From the NCBI GenBank assembly GCA_965223545.1, contig OZ245006.1, positions 6,528,001 to 6,592,000 of the forward strand: a DNA stretch of 64,000 nt, given 5' to 3'. Shown here in pieces: positions 19,149-64,000 of the stretch. The stretch is from Planctomycetota bacterium. GTDB lineage: Bacteria; Planctomycetota; UBA1135; UBA2386. Position numbers and translations under genes: made by a program. Each line of letters begins with the position of its first letter. The first letter of the stretch is position 1. The notes under the pieces are model-generated. The model was not told the DNA's origin. It worked only from the letters and a program-made list of their open reading frames with translations, and ran no database searches.

Positions 19149-20051
19149 ATGCAGTTCTTCGCTAGGAATGGGCGCGTCATCAACATCGATGAGAACGACC
19201 GCCTTGGTCGGGGCCTCGAGGGTGCGGTCTATCCGGCTAGCTCCTGGAGCGCCGCCAAGATCCTCCGGCCAGAGACCCTGCAGAAGCACGGGGGCTTTCA
19301 CGAGCAGAAGATCGTTGCCCTTGCGGAGCTCGGTCGTCATGCGCGTACGGAGCCGCTTCAACGGATCATCTGGCCGCTTCATCCTCTCTACACCAAGCAG
19401 GGCGATTTCGCGGGTTTCGAGATGGTCCGCATTTCTGATGCAATCACGCTCCTTGATGCCGCCTCGGATGAGGATTGGCCCTTTTGCGAGCGGCAGGATG
19501 CAGCGTGGCAACTCGCGCGGATCTATCGCGATGCGCACGCGGTAGGCATCCTTGTCGGTGACGGCAAGCTCGAGAACGCGCTCTACAAGGAGTCGACGAG
19601 GCACGTCTGTATCGTCGACAGCAACTCACTGCATCTGCCCGCGTTCCCTGGCACCGCGATCACGATTGACTACGTGAGGCCCGAGGAGGCAAGACGGGCA
19701 GAGGCGCAAAAGACGAGCAAGGACGAGCCCGCTCGGTATCGCGTGTCTCGCGCGGCCGACAACCACGCTCTTGCAGTGCAGCTCTTTCAGTTGTTGCTCC
19801 TGAACGTCCACCCGTTTAGCGCTGGAGACTCAATCGAGGAATGCGTGAAGCATGGGTATTGCGCGTTCCCCTATGAGGAACACGGGAACCGGAAGCGTGT
19901 GCGTTCCGGACCGTACCTTCGACAGTGGCGACGCCTCCCGCGGCATCTGCAGGCCATGTTTAGCGCGGCGTTTCACCGCGACAGAGCGCCGGAGCCTGCT
20001 GAATGGGAGATCGCCCTTTCCTCTGGCATTAGAAAAAGGAAGGCAAGCTAG
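19149..20051 (+). CDS. Protein kinase of TerY-P triad type
   Basis: LGRGLEGAVY, AAKI, IIWP, GFEM, LVGD...N, IVDSNS, YVRPE, HPF. Confidence 0.8.
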   Translation: MQFFARNGRVINIDENDRLGRGLEGAVYPASSWSAAKILRPETLQKHGGFHEQKIVALAELGRHARTEPLQRIIWPLHPLYTKQGDFAGFEMVRISDAITLLDAASDEDWPFCERQDAAWQLARIYRDAHAVGILVGDGKLENALYKESTRHVCIVDSNSLHLPAFPGTAITIDYVRPEEARRAEAQKTSKDEPARYRVSRAADNHALAVQLFQLLLLNVHPFSAGDSIEECVKHGYCAFPYEEHGNRKRVRSGPYLRQWRRLPRHLQAMFSAAFHRDRAPEPAEWEIALSSGIRKRKAS

Positions 20052-20749
20052 TGGTAAGAAAGAGAAAGCGCGTCCTCGGGACGTATACCGCGACCGTGTT
20101 CGTTGAGGACATCAGCACCAGCATGCAGGCCCCTGGCCGCATCGATGCCATCAACGCCATGAAGCCGAAGATGCTGCAGGCGTTGAGCAATCTGTCCGTA
20201 GGTGTTCGATACGCCGAGGTGAACTTCGGCTCGGACGCCTGCGTAGTGCAGGACTTCGACGATGTTCCAAACGTCACTCCGCAGCAGTACGCCGCCGACG
20301 GTGGCAACACCAATCTATCTGCCGGAGTGGCAGTGGCACTCGATCTTCTTGAAGGCCAGAAGGAGTACTTCAAGAAGAACCAGATTCCTCACAGGCAACC
20401 GGTGCTCATCGTCGCGAGCGACGGCGAGGCTAACCGAGAGACCGTTCCGGGTTACGACGCGCGTGTCCGCGAGCTCGTGGAGCGCAACAAGTTGACCGTG
20501 ATCCCGATCGCCGTTGGCGAACTCGGCGCATACCCCGTGCTCGAGTGGATTAGCCCCAAGTGCACGCCGGTGATGGTGAACACGAACAACGCCGCGAGCG
20601 TCGATTGGGACGACCTGCTGCAGCTGTTGTCTCAGTCGATTGACACGGGCAGCACGGAGGCGATCCAGGCACTTGCTGCCTCCCAAGCGCGGCAAGTCGG
20701 CCTGGACGGCGCGGATGAGGAACTGGTGGAGGAGGAAGTGGCACCGTGA
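20051..20749 (+). CDS. vWA domain protein (TerY-like)
   Basis: MIDAS DISTSM, GGNTNL, IVASDG. Confidence 0.85.
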   Translation: MVRKRKRVLGTYTATVFVEDISTSMQAPGRIDAINAMKPKMLQALSNLSVGVRYAEVNFGSDACVVQDFDDVPNVTPQQYAADGGNTNLSAGVAVALDLLEGQKEYFKKNQIPHRQPVLIVASDGEANRETVPGYDARVRELVERNKLTVIPIAVGELGAYPVLEWISPKCTPVMVNTNNAASVDWDDLLQLLSQSIDTGSTEAIQALAASQARQVGLDGADEELVEEEVAP

Positions 20750-21810
20750 GCAGCGCTTGTTGGTGGCTGGCTAGCGTAAGCCTTCGAGGGCGTGGCCATG
20801 TGGCTGCCAACAAGCCCTGCCAGGACGCTCACTTCGTTTGGGCAGACGGCAACATGGTTGTGCTTGTCGTTTGCGACGGGGCGGGTGGCGCGGAGCTGGA
20901 GGGGCAGTTCTCTCACGTCGGCTCCTCGACGGCGGCTCGCGTCATCGGGCGGTTGCTCGCCTGCCACGTTGAGGAGTTCCTCGCGGGGGCGCTGCGTCCG
21001 GAGGCCATTCTGGACGCAGCGCGATTCTCGCTAGGCGAGGTTGCCGAGGAGAAGGGGATTCCTCTGAAGGCGCTCGCAACAACGCTGGTTGCGCTTGTTG
21101 CAGATGAAGGGCGGGTGGGGACCCTTCACATCGGAGATGGGGCCGCCTACATGCTGGACAGGGAAATAGGGATCTGCCTGTCGCCGCCCGACAGGGAGCC
21201 CACCGGCACGACGATTTTCGTGACTAGCGACGCACCACGAGTTCGGTGCTACTCGCGGGAAGTACCGCCGCACGTCACCGGTTTCGCTGTGACGAGCGAC
21301 GGCGCGGAGGGCCTCTACCATGCTGAGAGCACGGAGGTCCATCCTCTTGTCGCGGAACTCATCCAGCAGCCAGACTTTGGGCCTGGGACCGACCGTCTCG
21401 AAGGGTTGATGCGCGAGTGTCTGGTTCCGGCCTCCGGCGATGACATCACTGTCGTCGTCGCCAGGAAGCCGTTCATCTCTGGGGTCTATGGCTGCCCAGC
21501 GTGTGGGGGGCACAATGTCGGTGCGGTGATTACGCGGTGCCGTGGAGAGTTCCTCGTGCGTTGCCGATCGCGGTCATGCAAAGAGAGCGCTCTGAGGGTC
21601 CGCATGGATGAGTACCCTGACGCGCCGGCGCTGTTCAGGAGGAACCTGCTACGCGCCGGAATGACGGCAACGATGGTTGCGCAGAGGATTCGTTCGCGCG
21701 TCAAGTCTAAGGTTCAGCGGCGGCAGCCTCACATTGCCCCCGCCGCGCCCTCGTCGTCTTGTGGTTGGGGGTTCCGGCGGCGCTTGGCCGGGCCGAGTCG
21801 ACGTTGCTGA
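20746..21810 (+). CDS. PP2C-family phosphatase with C-terminal Cys-rich extension
   Basis: GRGH..CQDA, VCDGAG, IGDG, TSDG, DDIT; then CPAC...CRSRSC. Confidence 0.85.
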   Translation: MSSACWWLASVSLRGRGHVAANKPCQDAHFVWADGNMVVLVVCDGAGGAELEGQFSHVGSSTAARVIGRLLACHVEEFLAGALRPEAILDAARFSLGEVAEEKGIPLKALATTLVALVADEGRVGTLHIGDGAAYMLDREIGICLSPPDREPTGTTIFVTSDAPRVRCYSREVPPHVTGFAVTSDGAEGLYHAESTEVHPLVAELIQQPDFGPGTDRLEGLMRECLVPASGDDITVVVARKPFISGVYGCPACGGHNVGAVITRCRGEFLVRCRSRSCKESALRVRMDEYPDAPALFRRNLLRAGMTATMVAQRIRSRVKSKVQRRQPHIAPAAPSSSCGWGFRRRLAGPSRRC

Positions 21811-26935: not shown

Positions 26936-27052
26936 GGACGCCTAAGCCCCTGTGACGTGGGGCTTTGTGGCTCGGCCGCGCAATTGCTTGTCGGCACCTG
27001 AAACCCTTCAGTCGGGTGTAGAGTTCATGGTGACCGTGCTACGCTCGTTTCG

Positions 27053-27511
27053 ATGGCCGAGACCTACACAATCGGGCGCCTGGCGAAGGTCGCCGAAGTT
27101 CCCATCTCAACCGTTCGCTACTACGAACAGCGCGGACTCTTGAAGCCGGAACGGCGAACTGAGTCCAACTACCGCGTCTACGGCCCGGCCAGTTTGAAGC
27201 GCTTGCGGTTTATCCGCATCGCGCAGCAAAGCGGCTTCACTCTCGAAGACATCGTGCTCCTTCTCCAGCTTCGCGACCGTGGAAGTGCCACCAGCTGCAA
27301 GCAGGTGGAAAACCTCGTCGACAAGCGACTCGACAACATCACGGCCCAGCTTCGGGAACTTCGACGCGTGCAAAAGGTCCTCCAGTCGACGCTCGAGTGG
27401 TGCAGGAACCCTCGCGTGAAAGGTCGCTGCCGAGTGCTGGACGACTTGGACGGGCAGGCCGCAAGTTCAGGGAAACGCAAATCACCGAGACGTGCCGGAA
27501 AGGCCTCTTGA
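27053..27511 (+). CDS. MerR-family heavy-metal-responsive regulator
   Basis: TIGRLAK..TVRYYEQRGLL, YRVY, GFTLEDI; Cys in SCKQ plus C-X8-C, the three-Cys pattern of Hg/divalent-metal sensors. Confidence 0.93.
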   Translation: MAETYTIGRLAKVAEVPISTVRYYEQRGLLKPERRTESNYRVYGPASLKRLRFIRIAQQSGFTLEDIVLLLQLRDRGSATSCKQVENLVDKRLDNITAQLRELRRVQKVLQSTLEWCRNPRVKGRCRVLDDLDGQAASSGKRKSPRRAGKAS

Positions 27512-27539
27512 CCCTTCACCATACTTCAAGCTGTAGCCT
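27508..27539 (+). promoter_or_regulatory. MerR-type promoter P1
   Basis: TTGACC - 20 bp - TAGCCT with imperfect dyad; ATG 7 nt downstream. Confidence 0.7.
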
Positions 27540-27546
27540 TTCCCTC

Positions 27547-28269
27547 ATGCACCCCATCCTGCGCCCAGGCCTCAGTTCGGTTCTGCTGCTCTCCCTGGTG
27601 GCTTGCTCTGAGCCACTAACAGACTCGCCAACTCACGCGCCCACTCCGGAGCTCTCGAAGCTCGTCTCGATTCGCGTCGCTGGTTTCATCGAGGCTGCAG
27701 GCATCACCTGAATGGGTTGACCGAACAAGGTCAAAGAAGCCCTGGATGGGCTTCAAGGCGTTCAGGATGTGCAGGTTGACCTCGAAGACGACAGGTTCGA
27801 TGTCACTTACAACCCGAGGGAAGTGTCTTCCGACACCTTGCTCGAGGCGGTCAGAAAGCTCGACTACACGCCGCAGCTGGTAACGCGCGCGGAGGGTGGG
27901 GGAGAGGCGCCTGCGGACCAGGTCGATGCGGCGCAGCTCCCCAAGGAACTTGCGGCGCTCTTCGCCAAGGCTCGGGAATCCAATAAGGTCGTGCTGCTCA
28001 AGTTCTCCGGGCCAGGTTGACCGCCGTGCAAACGCATGGATGCCGTGACGTATCCGCACGAAGTCGTGAAGAAGGAACTTGATGAACACTGGGTCACGAC
28101 TCACTACGACGTGAGTGAAGCGAAGCGTGTCGCTACCCTCTTCGGAGTCTCGGCGATTCCTGTTGCTATTGGTGTGACCGCTGACGGAATGGTTCTGGGG
28201 CGAGTTCTTGGGTTTGTCGAACCCGAGCGTTTCGAGAAGGAACTCGAGACACTTCGCGCCAAGCGCTAG
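27547..28269 (+). CDS. Putative triple-selenocysteine lipoprotein: HMA domain (UxxU) + thioredoxin-like domain (UxxC), 240 aa
   Basis: One frame with TGA at 27709, 27718 and 28018: GIT-U-MG-U-PNKVKEAL and FSGPG-U-PPC-KRM; lipobox LVAC; downstream hairpins; ends at TAG. Confidence 0.85.
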
Positions 28270-28865
28270 TTCGGGACCACCTTGTAGCCAGTGCGCTCAA
28301 CCGCCTGAACGACTTGCTCGTTGGCGGGAGGAGAGTTCGGCTCGAAGAACACGGTCGCGAGGCCTTCGCTGTAGTTGACGGAAGCACTTGCTACACCGGG
28401 AACCGTGAGAAGCTCCTTCTTCACGTGCACCGTGCAAGCCTCGCACGTCATGCCTTCGATTCGAACGGTCGCCTTCTCGGTCGCTGCTGCATTCGACGGG
28501 GTCGCCTCTCCCTGGTCAGGCGCGATGAGGCCTACGTAGTTCGGGAAGAGGCCAACAACCAACACCAGGGCCGTTGCGACCCAGAGCATCGCTCGGTTGA
28601 AGCGCACGAACTTGTTGCTCGGAGTCGCGCAAGTCTCCCCTGGTGCGCACGCCTGTTTCCGAAAGTAGGTGAAGTAGAAGCCACCAGCGAGAAGCACCGC
28701 TGCGCCACCGAGGAAGTAGGGACGCACAGCTTCAAACTGCGCCGAGATTCCAGCTGCAGATACGCCGAACGCAAGAAGCAGAAGGGGAAGCCAGCAGCAC
28801 GCAGACGCCACAACAGCTGCAAGCACCGACCCGAATGCGGCCAACATCCCACCGCGACCACTCAC
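28266..28865 (-). CDS. MerT-like metal transporter fused to an HMA (MerP/CopZ-like) domain
   Basis: ASACCWLPL in TM1, RPYF, CAPGETC loop, GMTCEAC. Confidence 0.88.
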   Translation of the reverse strand: MSGRGGMLAAFGSVLAAVVASACCWLPLLLLAFGVSAAGISAQFEAVRPYFLGGAAVLLAGGFYFTYFRKQACAPGETCATPSNKFVRFNRAMLWVATALVLVVGLFPNYVGLIAPDQGEATPSNAAATEKATVRIEGMTCEACTVHVKKELLTVPGVASASVNYSEGLATVFFEPNSPPANEQVVQAVERTGYKVVPN

Positions 28866-29278
28866 GATGTGGCCTCCTTGACGGCTTTTCTGAGGTCACC
28901 AAGACAGCACGACCCCTTCGGGTTCATCGTCTCGCAGCTGCATTCGCCAGCCTTCACCTTCGCGGTCACGGATTCCACGACGGCGCTCTCTCCGGTGCGA
29001 AGCACTTCGTCGCGGATGCTCTCCGCGCTGTGCCCGAAGCAGTAGCAGACCGGGTGGGGAGCGTCTGTCTCCTTCACCCCGACTCGGACCGCGACGTCGT
29101 CCTTGAGCAGCGTCGTTCCATCGCCTGCGAAGTAGACAACATCACAGTCGGGCTCTGGGCAAAACACCCACTGTCGCCCCTCAACAGCGCCTCGCACTTC
29201 TTCTCGCGCGAGGCTCTCGACCGTGACGGTCTTGACCGGCTTTCCTGGCGTCTTGGTCTTGGGGCAGAGAAGGTCCAT
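28862..29278 (-). CDS. CopZ N-terminal-like Zn/(2Fe-2S) Cys-rich protein
   Basis: FCPEPDCDVVYF, VCYCFGH, CSCETMNPKGSCC. Confidence 0.8.
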   Translation of the reverse strand: MDLLCPKTKTPGKPVKTVTVESLAREEVRGAVEGRQWVFCPEPDCDVVYFAGDGTTLLKDDVAVRVGVKETDAPHPVCYCFGHSAESIRDEVLRTGESAVVESVTAKVKAGECSCETMNPKGSCCLGDLRKAVKEATS

Positions 29279-29284
29279 GCTCCC

Positions 29285-29316
29285 ATTTACGGCCTTGAAC
29301 CCTGCTTTAGGGTCAA
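29285..29316 (-). promoter_or_regulatory. MerR-type promoter P3
   Basis: TTGACC - 20 bp (ctaaagcagggttcaaggcc) - GTAAAT, just upstream of the ATG at 29278. Confidence 0.65.
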
Positions 29317-29353
29317 GGGTTTTTCGGAGAATGACCAAGAAGCCCGCGCAACG

Positions 29354-30154
29354 TCACTTGTGGAGCAACTCGACGACCTTGTCCACGGCGTTCTTCGACG
29401 GCACGCGCACCGCGCCTACGAACTTGCCGTCCGCATCCAACACCACCAGCCCTGGGATGGGGGCGTCCTCGTGCTCGTGCTTGAACTTGTAGGCATGCGG
29501 TCTCCTCACGATGACGCGCACGGCATTCTTCGAGGTTTCGATGACTTGCTCGTCGTTCACGATGTCTGAGAGCGCACGGCTCTCAAAGCGGGTGCTTGGT
29601 CATCAAGTCTCTGCGCCAGAAAGCCCCACAAGAACGAGCTTCTTCTCCTTCTTGGCCTTCGCAACCGCATCAGCCAGCGACGCAAGGCTTGCGAACTGCC
29701 ACTCAAGGCGCGGCTTCTCGGGAGCCTTCATCTCCTTGGCCCCGAGCGATACCGAGACTTTCTCTTCCTTCAACGTCTTTGCGCGCAGCACGACGGCCTC
29801 GAGCTTCTTCCCAGGCTTACTCACACGCAACACATCGGCGATGTCGTCCTGGCTGAAGAGTTCGACTGCGCCGAGCTTCACGAGCACGTCACCGGCCTCG
29901 ATGCCTGCTTTGCCAGCGGCGCTGTCCTTCTCCACATCTGAGACAACCTGGCCGCGAGCTCGGACCTCGAACTTGAGGTCGAGCTGCTTGACCTCTTCCT
30001 TGGATGGAGCGCGCGTGCTCGCGCCGAGTGTTGCGACCTTGACGAGCTTCGGTTCCTTCTCTTGAGGGTCTTGGTCTGGCTTCTCTTGCGCTGCGACCGG
30101 GCAGCAACAGAGAAGCCCAACGACCGGGCCTAGAAGGTGACGGGTCCTGACCAT
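29354..30154 (-). CDS. Putative selenoprotein: signal peptide + PDZ + thioredoxin-like domain with tandem UU, 266 aa
   Basis: TGA TGA at 29605-29600 within KLVLVGLSGAET-U-U-PSTR; frame stays open into a Trx C-terminal half (IPGLVVLDADGK); 9-bp hairpin at 29565-29587. Confidence 0.8.
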
Positions 30155-30187
30155 GCTTTCGGTTCCTGGGGGGGTTGGAGGGCTGGC

Positions 30188-30219
30188 ATTGTCCACCCTC
30201 AACCATGGTGCATGGTCAA
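30188..30219 (-). promoter_or_regulatory. MerR-type promoter P2
   Basis: TTGACC - 20 bp (atgcaccatggttgagggtg) - GACAAT. Confidence 0.7.
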
Positions 30220-30314
30220 CTACTCCGCGAGGGGAAGTCGACCCGGGCGATGGGCGCCTTGGAAGGTGAGTCGGCGATGTCCTGCCGGACCGCTCACCAC
30301 CGTTCCCTAACGTC

Positions 30315-56463: not shown

Positions 56464-57864
56464 TCAGCAAGATTGGGTAGCCGGCATCGTTGCGGCCCGC
56501 TTTCCCTCTCGGTCTTCCGCGACGTTGCCTGCGCCGTCTTGAAGCGATCGGGCAACGAGTCGCGCGATGTCTCGATCGCGTGGTCCGCGACCAGAAGACC
56601 CATGCTCCCGCAGAAGGCGCTCGTGCTCGGCATCCTGCTCCTCGCGTCCGAGCCGTAGCCGTTCACGCGCCGTTGCCTCTTCGTGCGCTTGAAGTCGCCT
56701 CCTCGCCCGGTCCTCATCCGCATGCGTGATGAAGTTCCACTTTGGCTCACCTCCCCACACTCCAAGCAGCTTCGCGAAGAGGCCGCCGCGGTTTCGCGTC
56801 CCGTAGGCTCGAGCGTGTTCCGCCAGGGCCACGAACTGAAGCAGGTCGGCCTTGGCGGCGGATGAGAGGCCTGATGCTACAGCAGACTCGTGCAGTTCGA
56901 GGAGTCGCCCCATTTGCTCCAGGTCTCGGGGATGAACGTGCTGAAGCCGCGGCCGGGAACGATCTCTGTTCCGATTCCGAACCCCAGCAGGTCTGCCCGA
57001 GGCGGGTTGCTGGTTCCTAGATCCCGGAACGGGTTGCCGGTCTGAATCAACGCCCCGCAAACCGCTTGTGGATACCGGTGAATCGCCCCGCGGCGTGGTG
57101 CGGCTTTCTACGTGGACCGCATCAAGATGATCGCCGTCCGTTCTTGCCGTCGGCGAATCTGGATCAAGCCATGCCAGGTTCCAGTGGAAGCACCCACCCC
57201 ATCTCCGTCGACGCCAAAGCTCCACTGATGAGGTGTCGCCGTCCCTGACGATGATGCCGAGCTTCACCATCCGTCCCCTCGCCCGCTCCGCGCTACTTGA
57301 GTCGACGCCGAAAGCGGTTGCTACCCAGCTCAGCTTGCATCGCCCCCGTGGATGAACCAGGTTCGACCGAACGTATAGCATTCGCATGGCGTGGGCCAAC
57401 GCCGTTGCGATGAGTGCTCTCGTGCCGGCGCCGGCGAGGAACCGCACGAACCTACGAGGCAGCGGCACTGCGCGAGCGCGGTTCACGAAGTGGCCCTTGA
57501 ACCACGCATCGAACTCATCCCGGGGGATGTTGAGCTCCCCAGGCGTTCGGGGCCAGGTGATGTGGTGATCCCCGGCGTTCGAAAGGCCGAGCCTTCGCAG
57601 CGAGTTGAGTTCGCGTCTGAGGTGCTCTCCGCCAGTTCCGCCGACGAGGCCCCGCAGCTCGTCGAGGGAGAACGTCGGTCGCCTCTTGGATCCGAGCCGA
57701 CATCGACGAGCTTCCATCTCCAGCAGTGCCAGCAGCACTCGCAGGCCTCGAAGGCTGAGTTTTCTCGTTCGATAGCACCACCATGCGGCTGCAAGTAGCC
57801 ACACCTTGGGTCGGACGTAGCCACCGTCGGGCCGTGGTCTTGGGTGTAGTTGATCGCTGTTCAT
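56464..57864 (-). CDS. Putative replication initiator / multi-HTH protein
   Basis: wHTH-like segments, Arg-rich, divergent from parA across a repeat array; GGAGGAG RBS. Confidence 0.55.
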   Translation of the reverse strand: MNSDQLHPRPRPDGGYVRPKVWLLAAAWWCYRTRKLSLRGLRVLLALLEMEARRCRLGSKRRPTFSLDELRGLVGGTGGEHLRRELNSLRRLGLSNAGDHHITWPRTPGELNIPRDEFDAWFKGHFVNRARAVPLPRRFVRFLAGAGTRALIATALAHAMRMLYVRSNLVHPRGRCKLSWVATAFGVDSSSAERARGRMVKLGIIVRDGDTSSVELWRRRRWGGCFHWNLAWLDPDSPTARTDGDHLDAVHVESRTTPRGDSPVSTSGLRGVDSDRQPVPGSRNQQPASGRPAGVRNRNRDRSRPRLQHVHPRDLEQMGRLLELHESAVASGLSSAAKADLLQFVALAEHARAYGTRNRGGLFAKLLGVWGGEPKWNFITHADEDRARRRLQAHEEATARERLRLGREEQDAEHERLLREHGSSGRGPRDRDIARLVARSLQDGAGNVAEDREGKRAATMPATQSC

Positions 57865-60507: not shown

Positions 60508-62241
60508 CTACGTGAAGTCCGGAAGTAGTTCACAGCGGTCCCAGGCGGGAGTGAAGACGAGCACACCGTAGCGCGCCCTTGTTATCGCCACGCTTAGTAG
60601 GCGCCTACTTCTGGGCAAGCCATTGTCGCGCGGATCACCCGGTAGAACCAATCGGTTGTGCGGACCGAATCCGTCCACGATGAAGACCGCGTCGAACTCC
60701 TTCCCCTTGCACTTGTGGAGGGTGAGTAAGACGCGGCGCGCCCCGGCTCCAGCCGAGTCGGTAAGTCGCTCTCGCAGAAGGACGTCGTCACCGAGTTCAA
60801 CCGCGCCGGCGTAGCATCCGTTCGCGTGATAGGTTTCCGCAAGACGCTCGGTAGCTGGCTCCCTTTCGCCCGCCGGAAGACGGAGGTCCAGGGTGCGCAC
60901 GACTCGAGCGAAGTGCTTGCCCGGCAACCCGCGGAGAATCTCTCGGATCGCGCGCAGATCTCGGATGGGGTCGCCGGTGCGTGCCCTAGTAGCATCATTC
61001 ACTTTGGCGAGAAGCTGCTTCACGGCACGCATCTGGCCGGTGACGCTGTTCTGGGCAACAGCCTGGCTCCATTCGGCCAGGCGTGCAGCCTGCTTAGCTG
61101 CTTCTCCGCCTTTCCGCAGACGGTGGATGTTAGCAAGGAGCTGGAACGCATCTGCGACACAAGCCCGTTGCGGTTCCGGTTCCGCTTCGAGGAGGCGAAG
61201 GGCGATGCGCCACGCAAACACGATGCTCTCATAAGAGAGAAGGACCTGATGTCCGAATGGTCGCGGGAAGGCATCGCTGGGTGTCTTCAAGAGCCCGGAA
61301 AGCTCTCCAACACGCCTGTTTCGCGTTGCCATGATCGCGATGGTCGGAGAGGCGCCTTGCCCAAGGCGCTTCATGAGGCGCTTCTCGGTTGATACCAGGG
61401 CCTTCTTCAACGAATCAGCCAAGTCGGCGTTCTTGCGGATTCCCCAGAGTGCTACATCACTTGGCTTTTTGATCCGTGGGGCGTCGTCGAGCACGGCTCG
61501 CGCAACTGCAACCAGGTCGCGCTCGCCGCTTCGATGGTTGGTGCCTTCCAGCTTGACGACCTTGAAGCGGCCCGTGGCTTCGAGTTGCTCGAGCCGATCA
61601 TGGCGCGAGCCAGGACGGTAGTCGTAGATCCGCTGTTCTGGGTCTCCGAGACAGATGAGCTGGCTTTGAGCGGCGAGGTTTCCGATGAGGGTGTCCTCGT
61701 TGTCATCCGTGTCCTGGTATTCGTCAACGAGGATGAGCGGATAGGCGCTCGAGTAGGCGGCAGCTAGATGTTCGTGCCGTTCGATGAGGTTGAGGCAGAG
61801 AGGGGCGAAACGGTCAAAGGTCACGTGGCCCTCTTCTTGCTCCAGGCGCCCGATTTCGCCCTCGCTGTCGTCTGGATGGCTGGCCTCGACAAGTCCAAGT
61901 TCTTCGGGTGGAAACAGCTTGAAGGCGGGCAGGCCCACGAGTTTGTGATGGGACGCAAGAAGGCGATAGCAGAAGGCGTGAAACGTAGTGACGTGGAGTA
62001 AGCGCCGCGTTTCGCGTGTCAGGTTGTCGCCCGCGGCAGCGCGAATGCGTTGCACCGCTGCGTTGGAGAAGCTCACGAACAGCACGCGCTGGAAGTCCAG
62101 CATCTGCCCGCCGCGAATCAGTTTGGCGGCTTTCCACAGCGCAACGGAAGTCTTGCCCGTTCCGGGTCGGCCGATGACGAGCAAGTTCTCGTCGCTATCG
62201 AGAACCCTCTGCTGGCTCTTCGTCGGTTTCTTCTTCCCCAT
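60508..62241 (-). CDS. UvrD-like helicase (GajB-like)
   Basis: GRPGTGKT, TFHAF, VDEYQDT, GDPEQRIY, NHRS, TLHKCKGKEFD, VAITRAR. Confidence 0.88.
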   Translation of the reverse strand: MGKKKPTKSQQRVLDSDENLLVIGRPGTGKTSVALWKAAKLIRGGQMLDFQRVLFVSFSNAAVQRIRAAAGDNLTRETRRLLHVTTFHAFCYRLLASHHKLVGLPAFKLFPPEELGLVEASHPDDSEGEIGRLEQEEGHVTFDRFAPLCLNLIERHEHLAAAYSSAYPLILVDEYQDTDDNEDTLIGNLAAQSQLICLGDPEQRIYDYRPGSRHDRLEQLEATGRFKVVKLEGTNHRSGERDLVAVARAVLDDAPRIKKPSDVALWGIRKNADLADSLKKALVSTEKRLMKRLGQGASPTIAIMATRNRRVGELSGLLKTPSDAFPRPFGHQVLLSYESIVFAWRIALRLLEAEPEPQRACVADAFQLLANIHRLRKGGEAAKQAARLAEWSQAVAQNSVTGQMRAVKQLLAKVNDATRARTGDPIRDLRAIREILRGLPGKHFARVVRTLDLRLPAGEREPATERLAETYHANGCYAGAVELGDDVLLRERLTDSAGAGARRVLLTLHKCKGKEFDAVFIVDGFGPHNRLVLPGDPRDNGLPRSRRLLSVAITRARYGVLVFTPAWDRCELLPDFT

Positions 62242-62249
62242 TCGCTGCT

Positions 62250-64000
62250 TTACTCCGCAACATCGTCCGTTTCGCCATCCGGCTCAGCCAGGACGTCCGG
62301 AAGTAGGTCGGAGAACATCGCTGCAAGCGGGTCGTCTGCAGGAAGCAGCTTCTCCCCACACTGAAGATGGAGCTCGCCGAGGAACCCAAGTAGGGTCGGA
62401 GGGAGTTCGTCGGCAGGGCACATGGACACGAGGATTTCCGCGTAGCCCTCACCCTTGCGCGCCTTGAGAACGTCCTCGACGCAAGTGCGCCAAGACTCGT
62501 CTGCGTCGGTATCGGCGGGAACGGGCAGACTGGGGAAGTCGGTTCGGGAGCGAACGTCGCTGATGAAGGACTTCAGCACGTCGACTGGCACCTCGGCAGC
62601 GATGAGTCGCTCGAACCCGCGGTAGGAGAGCTCCCAGACTCGAGTGGCTGACCCTTCAATATCGCTCCGCATGTCGCCCGTAGCGATTGAGTCGCAGAAG
62701 ACAAAGCTCGGAATCCCGAGCTCAGCGAAGAACTCAGCCACCTTCGCGAGTTCTCCGTCGCCTCCGACTTCGACCGTGACTACTCCAGCAAGGTCGAGTG
62801 GGGCGTAGGCTGAGCCGGTGCGATGAAGAACGTCGCTTGCTGCCGGAATCGCGTAGAGCTCGGTGAGTCCTTCAACAAGCAAGACCGCCCGTCCGAGCAG
62901 TCCCTCTGCGAATCGAAGTCGAAACCCTTGCCGCAGAAACTTCTCCTTCACTCTGCCCTCAGGTTGGACGCGCGATGTAGACACACCGCCGTCCTCGGAC
63001 CGCGACAGCACGAGAATGTGGTCGGGAAGGAACTGCTCTGCTACGTAGGGGGAGTGACTCGTGGCGACCAGCTGGGTTGCGGATCGCTTCAGCTCGGAGA
63101 TGATTCGCCGTTGCGTGTGGGGGCCGAGCGCGATCTCGGGCTCCTCCATGGCGAAGATGACGTTTTGCTTGTTTGCAGCGATGGCACTCAAGAGAGACAG
63201 GACAAGAACGTTCGAGGTCCCTGCGCCAAGCCTGTCGAAGGGGAGCGAGTGGTCGCTTTCTCTGCTCGAGAGGAAGTAGCTGACGACCGTTCGCAGATGC
63301 TCACGGGTCAGCCGACTCACCTGAAGACTCGTCGAGCCGGTGTCTCCCTCCGCCAAGGCAACGAACTTGCGTATGTGCTGCTCGATGTCATTGAGCGCGT
63401 CACGGAGGTTTTCGTCTTGATCGAGCCGCTCACCCAGGTCACCAAGGCCGTCGAGAATCGACTCCCAAACACGCGGGCGCGCTGAACGCAGACGTAGCAG
63501 GACGTCAAGCAGACTCCCGCGCTGGAGGCTCGCGGCGCGACGAGCAGTCCGTAGGGACCTCAGATACAGGAACCCGATGGCCTGCTTGTGCCGCTTCGTG
63601 AGGGGCTCGAGTTCGTCTTCAGGTTTGTCGGGAGTTCGGAAGAAAGTCCGGACTGTGAACTCGTCTTCTTCGGAGTCATACCAGCCGAAGAATCCCACCC
63701 GGAGCACATACTGCTCCTCCCCGAGGGTGAGGTCATCGAGTTCAGCATGCGTGTACGGTCGATGTTCGTCCGCGTTCCATGCCTCAAGATGGGCACGAAA
63801 CCGTGTGCGCTCGTTTGCGTCGAGACGCCCCAGCACGACCTCGATCTCGATTCTGGGTGGGGTGGCGGTCTCGGTCTCCGACTGGTCAACCTCGGAGTTT
63901 GCCGCAACCTCAACCGGCTGGTAGTTGCCTCGGTGGAAGTCGTGTTCGTTGATAGTGTCGGGACCCGCGGCTCGATCAGGCCCGAGCACAAGGTCCAGTG
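62250..64000 (-). CDS. OLD-family ATP-dependent nuclease (GajA-like), 5' end outside window
   Basis: LGAG signature, AMEEPE, TSHSP, TOPRIM LLVEGLTE; adjacent to the UvrD helicase. Confidence 0.88.
   Translation of the reverse strand, partial: LDLVLGPDRAAGPDTINEHDFHRGNYQPVEVAANSEVDQSETETATPPRIEIEVVLGRLDANERTRFRAHLEAWNADEHRPYTHAELDDLTLGEEQYVLRVGFFGWYDSEEDEFTVRTFFRTPDKPEDELEPLTKRHKQAIGFLYLRSLRTARRAASLQRGSLLDVLLRLRSARPRVWESILDGLGDLGERLDQDENLRDALNDIEQHIRKFVALAEGDTGSTSLQVSRLTREHLRTVVSYFLSSRESDHSLPFDRLGAGTSNVLVLSLLSAIAANKQNVIFAMEEPEIALGPHTQRRIISELKRSATQLVATSHSPYVAEQFLPDHILVLSRSEDGGVSTSRVQPEGRVKEKFLRQGFRLRFAEGLLGRAVLLVEGLTELYAIPAASDVLHRTGSAYAPLDLAGVVTVEVGGDGELAKVAEFFAELGIPSFVFCDSIATGDMRSDIEGSATRVWELSYRGFERLIAAEVPVDVLKSFISDVRSRTDFPSLPVPADTDADESWRTCVEDVLKARKGEGYAEILVSMCPADELPPTLLGFLGELHLQCGEKLLPADDPLAAMFSDLLPDVLAEPDGETDDVAE

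Follow-up and report, generated by a model that had tools for sequence, protein, structure and literature searches.

Does a gene interrupted by three in-frame TGA codons encode one intact protein and, if so, what would that protein do? Positions 27547-28269 of the window (i.e., the whole stretch of 64,000 nucleotides of Planctomycetota bacterium DNA analyzed here) raise this question, since a first-pass annotation made from the letters alone had proposed that the three TGA codons are read as selenocysteine (Sec, U), two of them in the metal-binding loop of an HMA domain and one in a thioredoxin site. Our analysis of the locus and its relatives makes it very likely that the gene encodes one exported protein with three predicted selenocysteines.

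One frame carrying an HMA and a thioredoxin domain

Re-reading of the sequence confirmed that the three ORF fragments listed earlier (27397-27711, 27769-28020, and 28036-28269) lie in one frame. With TGA read as Sec, 27547-28269 (+) is a single frame of 240 aa that ends at TAG, and its only in-frame TGA codons are 55 (27709), 58 (27718), and 158 (28018). The likely start is the ATG at 27547 and not the GTG at 27397 that opens the first fragment; the protein then begins with a hydrophobic stretch followed by LVAC at residues 17-20, a lipobox judged by eye. The features of the locus are compiled in Table 1.

Table 1. Features of the HMA-thioredoxin locus (positions are those of the window)
Feature	Position	Strand	Basis or remark
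MerR-family regulator, Cys82/Cys117/Cys126	27053..27511	+	Pfam, residue numbering; upstream of fusion gene
Possible MerR-type long-spacer promoter, TTGACC, 20 nt, TAGCCT	27508..27539	+	Sequence; weak
HMA(UxxU)-thioredoxin(UxxC) fusion gene	27547..28269	+	240 aa with TGA = Sec
Predicted lipoprotein signal peptide, lipobox LVAC (Cys20)	27547..27606	+	Sequence, by eye
HMA domain, inserted loop G-F-x4-G-I-T-U-x-x-U-P	27661..27882	+	PF00403
Putative Sec, TGA codon 55	27709..27711	+	Conserved in relatives
Putative Sec, TGA codon 58	27718..27720	+	Conserved in relatives
SECIS-type hairpin, 7-bp stem, loop TGGAT	27736..27754	+	Covariation; -11.8 kcal/mol
Thioredoxin-fold domain, U-P-P-C	27970..28245	+	Pfam PF13098
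Putative Sec, TGA codon 158	28018..28020	+	Cys 69, TGA 19, unread 4, of 92 loci
Weaker SECIS-type hairpin, loop CGTGAC	28037..28056	+	-6.9 kcal/mol
MerT-HMA (MerTP-like) fusion, GMTCEAC	28266..28865	-	Pfam MerT and HMA over cut-off
CopZ N-terminal-like putative Fe-S metallochaperone	28862..29278	-	NF047645 over cut-off
PDZ + thioredoxin-like partner gene, TGA-TGA at codons 184-185 (GAET-U-U-PS), final TGA = stop	29354..30154	-	Pfam, sequence
SECIS-type hairpin of partner gene, loop CGTGC	29565..29587	-	-11.3 kcal/mol; also in relatives

When U was written as C, as the annotation had suggested, both domains passed their Pfam cut-offs: HMA (PF00403) at residues 51-107 (E 5.8e-13; 49.5 bits, above the gathering score of 24.8) and Thioredoxin_2 (PF13098) at residues 142-233 (E 1.1e-10). 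The claim that GIT-U-MG-U occupies the GMTCxxC site of HMA domains holds for the two residues, because U55 and U58 fall on the CxxC positions when aligned to HMA domains with structures in the PDB, including MerP and CopZ (the nearest being copper ATPase domains), but not for the loop, which has an insertion of 6-7 residues before UxxU. This insertion occurs in 92/92 loci from GTDB, and Pro59, directly after the second U, is invariant, so that the HMA loop is remodeled. A recent duplication of the neighboring MerTP gene is an unlikely origin, given that BLASTP gave no significant likeness. A homologue, P0020, combines two HMA domains with a thioredoxin fold, and its second HMA domain has lost the UxxU/CxxC motif.

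The TGA codons are accurate and conserved

Gene callers split this gene. Protein databases carry the family mostly as fragments, and many entries begin just past UxxU, which could be taken to mean that the TGAs are true stops in a pseudogene, products of assembly error, or boundaries of small separate ORFs. We consider this scarcely credible, for the reasons given here and because of the covarying hairpin described below. Runs X1 and X4, which belong to a single study that may be the source of the assembly itself, gave contigs identical to 27000-30300, and contigs of run X5, from a second study, are identical over 27416-27741 and 27741-30300; the suspicion of assembly errors thus failed against independent assemblies without a single differing letter. 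Nor do homologues end at codon 55, as the annotation had allowed; they run through both domains. Moreover, the same positions hold TGA in 92 loci across phyla, with relatives at 24-62% identity.

More specifically, 200 genomes of the order yielded 15 full-length relatives, of which 4 have three TGA and 11 have two; both HMA TGAs are kept in 15/15, which argues against chance. Searching 301 genomes of the phylum with a profile blind to TGA, with 10 candidates scored per genome, yielded 21 full-length matches including the gene itself (11 with three TGA and 10 with two), and 0/21 were all-Cys or free of TGA. UxxU-P was present in every one of the 19 (out of 20) loci of this search in which the positions were read. 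When GTDB was scanned for a pattern that demanded both HMA TGAs, 92 loci came up, each showing the family motif; the titles of their records name Planctomycetota, Gammaproteobacteria, Krumholzibacteriota, Eisenbacteria, and Acidobacteriota. The order, phylum, and GTDB sets overlap, and their counts are not additive.

The thioredoxin site of the 92 loci reads CxxC in 69, UxxC in 19, and is unread in 4. The alignment of Cys/TGA pairs proposed in the annotation therefore came out differently for the two sites: codon 158 does exchange between Cys and TGA, which together with the Thioredoxin_2 match substantiates U-PPC as the thioredoxin CxxC site, but for codons 55 and 58 no all-Cys fusion member was found in the samples searched. 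The UxxC forms, 18 rows including this gene, make up one side of a branch (100/96) in a tree of 77 rows, and their nearest rows are Planctomycetota records. A loose lipobox pattern was matched by 15/19 three-TGA relatives and 11/69 Cys forms.

Of at least 150 profile matches listed, 8 were examined, and none has CxxC at the UxxU site: six start at UxxU or beyond it, another carries W in place of both U, and in the last the motif is lost. A single-protein locus search in GTDB gave no match, and a word-index protein search gave one partial match of 145 aa.

SECIS-type hairpins follow the TGA codons

According to the bSECIS model as outlined in PMC13188914, the hairpin has a loop of 3-9 nt whose first two positions contain G, lies 16-37 nt from the UGA, and folds at -7.5 kcal/mol or below. 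The hairpin at 27736-27754, which is 31 nt past U55 and 22 nt past U58, fits this model for both codons. Among 86 sequences, 87.9% of its cells are paired (compared with 22-55% in slid controls), 5/7 pairs have changed on both sides, and 0/500 shuffles reach its score, bearing in mind that the relatedness of the sequences inflates such tests. With the energy limit set at -5.5 kcal/mol, 77/87 loci pass the model versus 60/906 control codons. Hence, this one hairpin likely serves both U55 and U58, as these data suggest, and a single hairpin for two UGAs has been proposed for UXXU hydrogenases as well (PMC13582414). An additional hairpin that contains the second UGA is without covariation, and we do not claim it.

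The hairpin for U158, located 23 nt downstream, fits the model in loop and spacing; its energy of -6.9 kcal/mol falls short of the -7.5 threshold, and it is not the minimum-energy fold. At -5.5 kcal/mol it is found in 11/17 TGA forms, which constitute one clade, versus 0/58 Cys forms, and its covariation score is reached by 16/500 shuffles.

The host is equipped to decode Sec

The host genome (8.1 Mb, 91% complete) encodes SelA, one SelB over cut-off, SelD with an internal TGA, and a tRNA-Sec of 99 nt with a G discriminator. Given this machinery, the SECIS-type hairpins, the TGAs kept in full-length relatives, and the Cys/TGA exchange at codon 158, we predict with high confidence that the TGAs of this gene are decoded as Sec and that the protein contains selenium. 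SelA is present in 193/201 genomes of the order, and therefore its co-occurrence with the family says little there; it was not seen in 6/30 carrier genomes, for which six no completeness is given.

The frame could instead be read through with Cys (from a tRNA-ReC-type system) or Trp inserted at one or more of the UGAs. tRNA-ReC occurs in ~56% of genomes with UXXU hydrogenases, where UGA may be Cys (PMC13582414), and in our host the tRNA-Sec gene selC is preceded, 86 bases upstream on the same strand, by cysS (G000:C1:7951380-7952986). This alternative is nevertheless very improbable: the tRNA-Sec is the only UCA tRNA found, there is one canonical tRNA-Cys and one SelB, and TGA terminates ordinary genes in the window. 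ARAGORN, Rfam, and a pattern scan detected no tRNA-ReC in the host (an indirect search by features, i.e., long, UCA/GCA anticodon, U discriminator), and ARAGORN at low threshold gave noise only.

A rough coding-score scan of the host produced 662 candidate TGAs, many of them noise, including 58 with redox-like motifs. About a dozen are clear UxxC/CxxU sites in thioredoxin-, glutaredoxin-, and HMA-like proteins, among them an HMA-like AMT-U-GGC at 6727830, and a UxxC thioredoxin is therefore ordinary in this genome. The only DsbD membrane domain over cut-off (G000:C1:4306602-4307631, -) shares its frame with a UxxC site downstream. The scan also picked up a TGA pair three codons apart, GGG-U-EA-U-CY, at 56859-56871 (+) (G000:C1:6584862, 6584871), which is probably noise. 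A literature search combining selenoprotein and Planctomycetota gave no match.

A partner gene with adjacent TGAs, gene fusions, and TGA-bearing regulators

The nearby PDZ-thioredoxin gene reads GAET-TGA-TGA-PSTRFES. Its matches in 201 genomes have two TGA in 10/10 cases, one of them with a TAA as well. Across 16 distinct partner sequences (picked for TGA-TGA), the downstream codons vary synonymously while the residues hold, no in-frame start intervenes, and a SECIS-type hairpin follows, in the present gene 24 and 21 nt past the two TGAs; for these reasons, read-through of the two adjacent UGAs is likely.

In-frame fusions in both orders support a partnership with this UU gene: the partner is fused ahead of the HMA-thioredoxin protein in L089 and L117 (five TGA) and behind it in L100 (four TGA). 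Other arrangements were also observed. In L112, one frame without stop joins CopZ-N, MerT, a Cys HMA, the HMA(UxxU), and thioredoxin, and L077 and L113 have an extra N-terminal HMA with U-x3-U. Beside or fused to the family protein, L106:4170-4700 (-) and L111 contain a thioredoxin-like domain with SPT-U-G-x-C. Downstream of the family gene, L088:2700-3256 (+) and L116 encode exported HMA-like proteins with a two-TGA motif, VEGLT-U-x6-G-U-G.

Two MerR regulators, L082:3132-3524 (+) and L201:1441-1872 (-; next to L177), are 54% identical and have TGA at residue 112, the equivalent of the metal ligand Cys117. They have in common a GGTC-loop hairpin 15 nt downstream of the TGA, and each stands beside a three-TGA family gene; of 36 MerR matches, the other 35 had no stop. 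It is possible that these two are Sec-containing transcription regulators, a lead provided by two sequences.

A neighborhood with mer-type genes

The fusion gene converges on an operon composed of the PDZ-thioredoxin gene, the CopZ-N-like metallochaperone, and the MerT-HMA fusion, which scores 115 bits against NF033556, below the cut-off of 180. The upstream regulator scores 109 bits against TIGR02051 (cut-off, 150.85), and its Cys numbering is identical to that of Tn501 MerR; CadR and ZntR likewise use the third Cys (both from PMC9909328). The possible promoter in Table 1 has an unremarkable dyad score, the MerR promoter signal was found in 8/91 versus 12/421, and box tests were weak or null. 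Of the canonical mer operon features, a MerR with Cys82/117/126 and a MerT-type transporter are present and MerA was not found: the host has no MerA over cut-off (two best matches inspected), and 3/30 carrier genomes tested have one.

The region has a GC content of 0.61-0.66, compared with 0.70 for the genome, and belongs to a low-GC island (~12000-62000) that carries an ArdC-like gene, a TrwC relaxase, two coupling proteins, an integrase, ParA, two RND metal-efflux clusters, and one CDF gene. The integrase sits between the fusion gene and the RND genes. The island also holds a kinase-like/vWA/PP2C trio at 19149-21810. An AAA-TOPRIM and UvrD pair at 60511-63989 presumably resembles a Gabija-type defense system.

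Among the 80 loci with flanks, a MerR-family gene lies within ~4 kb in 40, MerT in 19, CopZ-N in 12, PDZ-thioredoxin in 11, and a CzcA/CusA-like gene in 11, although many MerR-linked loci are close kin and these counts are not independent. Neighbor clusters also include MerF (in 6 loci), MerA (in 5), and MerC-like proteins (in 4); one representative of each was scanned, and those of MerA and MerF passed their cut-offs. Of the 40 neighboring MerR regulators, 39 possess the complete Cys triad of the divalent (Hg/Cd/Pb) type, and the remaining one has TGA at one Cys; Cys82 is found in 40/40, and none is of the CueR Ser type. MerR is near 5/17 three-TGA loci with flanks, and the neighbors in 11 three-TGA loci with flanks (63/73 ORFs scanned) are mostly unrelated genes.

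These neighbors bear on the possibility that the protein is a Sec-based chaperone that feeds the nearby RND and CDF exporters with a metal other than mercury (Cd, Pb, Zn, Cu, or Ag). The two RND systems and the cation-efflux gene on the same island, the CzcA/CusA-like genes in 11/80 loci, and the copper ATPase domains that are the closest solved HMA structures agree with such a role, as do the use of a third Cys by CadR and ZntR and the failure to find MerA in the host. We nonetheless hold it to be improbable, in view of the Cys82 in 40/40 regulators without any CueR Ser type, the mer-type character of the MerT, MerF, MerC-like, and MerA neighbors, and the integrase that separates the gene from the RND genes.

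A metal scavenger or a redox relay

On balance, we favor a metal-scavenger role, in which the protein would be a Sec-liganded trap for soft divalent metal ions, with Hg(II) as the likeliest candidate. Selenols bind Hg tighter than thiols and readily form diselenides; such very tight Se-Hg binding could also block hand-over of the metal. In this scheme, SelB would insert Sec at codons 55 and 58 via one shared hairpin and at codon 158 via a second, and the protein would be lipid-anchored in the periplasm. The U55/U58 pair of the HMA domain would hold the soft divalent metal, and the protein's own Sec-thioredoxin domain would keep the UxxU pair reduced outside the cytoplasm, with host DsbD as a possible supplier of electrons. 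Together with the PDZ-thioredoxin partner, the protein might thus act as a high-affinity MerP-like scavenger beside MerTP. With no MerA found in the host, the protein would more probably hold or relay the metal here than feed a reductase. The link to metals is supported by the HMA fold, the MerR, MerT, MerF, and MerA neighbors, and the L112 fusion to MerT-MerP. Against a mercury role stand the rarity of MerA among carriers and the 40/80 loci without MerR in their flanks, and, as argued by Haft and Gwadz (bioRxiv 2022.07.06.499078), dependence on Sec would be an odd design for mercury resistance.

The same motifs would also suit a periplasmic redox relay, in which the thioredoxin domain cycles a UxxU diselenide and the protein, rather than holding metal, maintains MerTP, efflux parts, or other envelope proteins with their cysteines reduced. 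Two-chalcogen motifs in both domains, the remodeled HMA loop with its insertion and invariant Pro59, the many orphan members away from metal genes, the extra thioredoxin domains in fusions L111 and L100, and the many other UxxC redox candidates of the host are in line with this, and a diselenide in the UxxU motif of another family is named in a title in the reference list of PMC2398784. The evidence for metal handling just listed weighs against the relay, which we judge unlikely, though worth keeping in mind; the two roles are not exclusive.

Returning to the metal scavenger, we tentatively suggest, as a possible broader picture drawn from sequence comparison, an uncatalogued selenium-based system for sensing and trapping soft metal (mercury) in planctomycetes and marine Gammaproteobacteria, mostly without MerA. 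It would consist of an obligate di-Sec HMA scavenger, a UGA-UGA partner, fusions with at least five Sec per chain, and, in some lineages, a MerR regulator with Sec as metal ligand.

Comparison with known systems

Each half of the protein is known, i.e., UxxU HMA and UxxC thioredoxin, and the fusion is probably an uncatalogued family. No model in NCBIfam 20.0 spans the whole fusion, and Table 1 of a 2026 inventory of 119 prokaryotic selenoprotein families (PMC13188914) lists no HMA-thioredoxin fusion, UU motif, or MerR, and at most three Sec. Neither the fusion nor a UU motif in prokaryotes nor a MerR with Sec was described in the literature searched, outside of which lay most subscription journals, supplements, BSepDB, and RefSeq records; single fusion members may already be annotated in the last three.

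The annotation had called a diselenol HMA loop unusual. The Sec pair in the loop is supported by our data, but it has a precedent in NF041115 (UxxU_metal_bind), entered in that Table 1 as a 'putative mercuric reductase' with 2 Sec. NF041115 is the best NCBIfam match of the fusion (E 7.6e-15) and likewise has an HMA fold in which Sec stands in for each Cys of the metal site. However, it is a single-domain model of 74 positions, against which the fusion scores 54.8 bits (41.8 on DNA) versus a cut-off of 95 and the neighboring Cys HMA scores 61.1; the fusion family adds an export signal, the loop insertion, Pro after the second U, and the thioredoxin domain. With UxxC thioredoxin and thiol:disulfide interchange selenoproteins (PF00085, PF13098) it shares the thioredoxin fold and Sec at the first Cys, whereas here this domain is fused behind a UxxU HMA and Sec is confined to one family branch (18 rows, 100/96).

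An exported HMA beside MerT and a three-Cys MerR-family regulator recall MerP/MerTP of mer operons and the MerT/CopZ fusion selenoprotein NF045683, but the scores are low (TIGR02052, 28.7/92.55; NF045683, 23.5/375), the ligands are Sec, a thioredoxin domain is added, and MerA is usually not found. The partner gene resembles the Trx7/PDZ (seleno)protein NF041199 in joining PDZ to a thioredoxin-like domain with Sec; in contrast to the CxxU motif and one Sec listed for that family, it has U-U-P-S, and it scores 36.9 versus 300 with a match over the PDZ part only.

Haft and Gwadz (2022) report that their search for selenoproteins with a part in mercury resistance found none. Since MerT/MerP-like proteins with putative Sec are already cataloged (PMC13188914), the theme is not wholly new. 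In the SAO system of Haft and Gwadz, too, a metal-related locus combines several selenoproteins, and its paired CC/CU motifs are interpreted as heavy-metal-binding. Unlike SAO, which is described as chromosomal and from anaerobic Firmicutes, the fusion locus comprises different families and lies on a low-GC island that carries genes for relaxase and integrase. Pipelines based on Cys homology can miss families without an all-Cys member (PMC12013277), and the present family is widespread, hidden by gene callers, and has no all-Cys full-length member in our samples. It offers testable cases in which one bacterial SECIS would serve a pair of UGAs, either next to each other or separated by 9 nt, and in which selenium would be a dedicated ligand for metal in the cell envelope.
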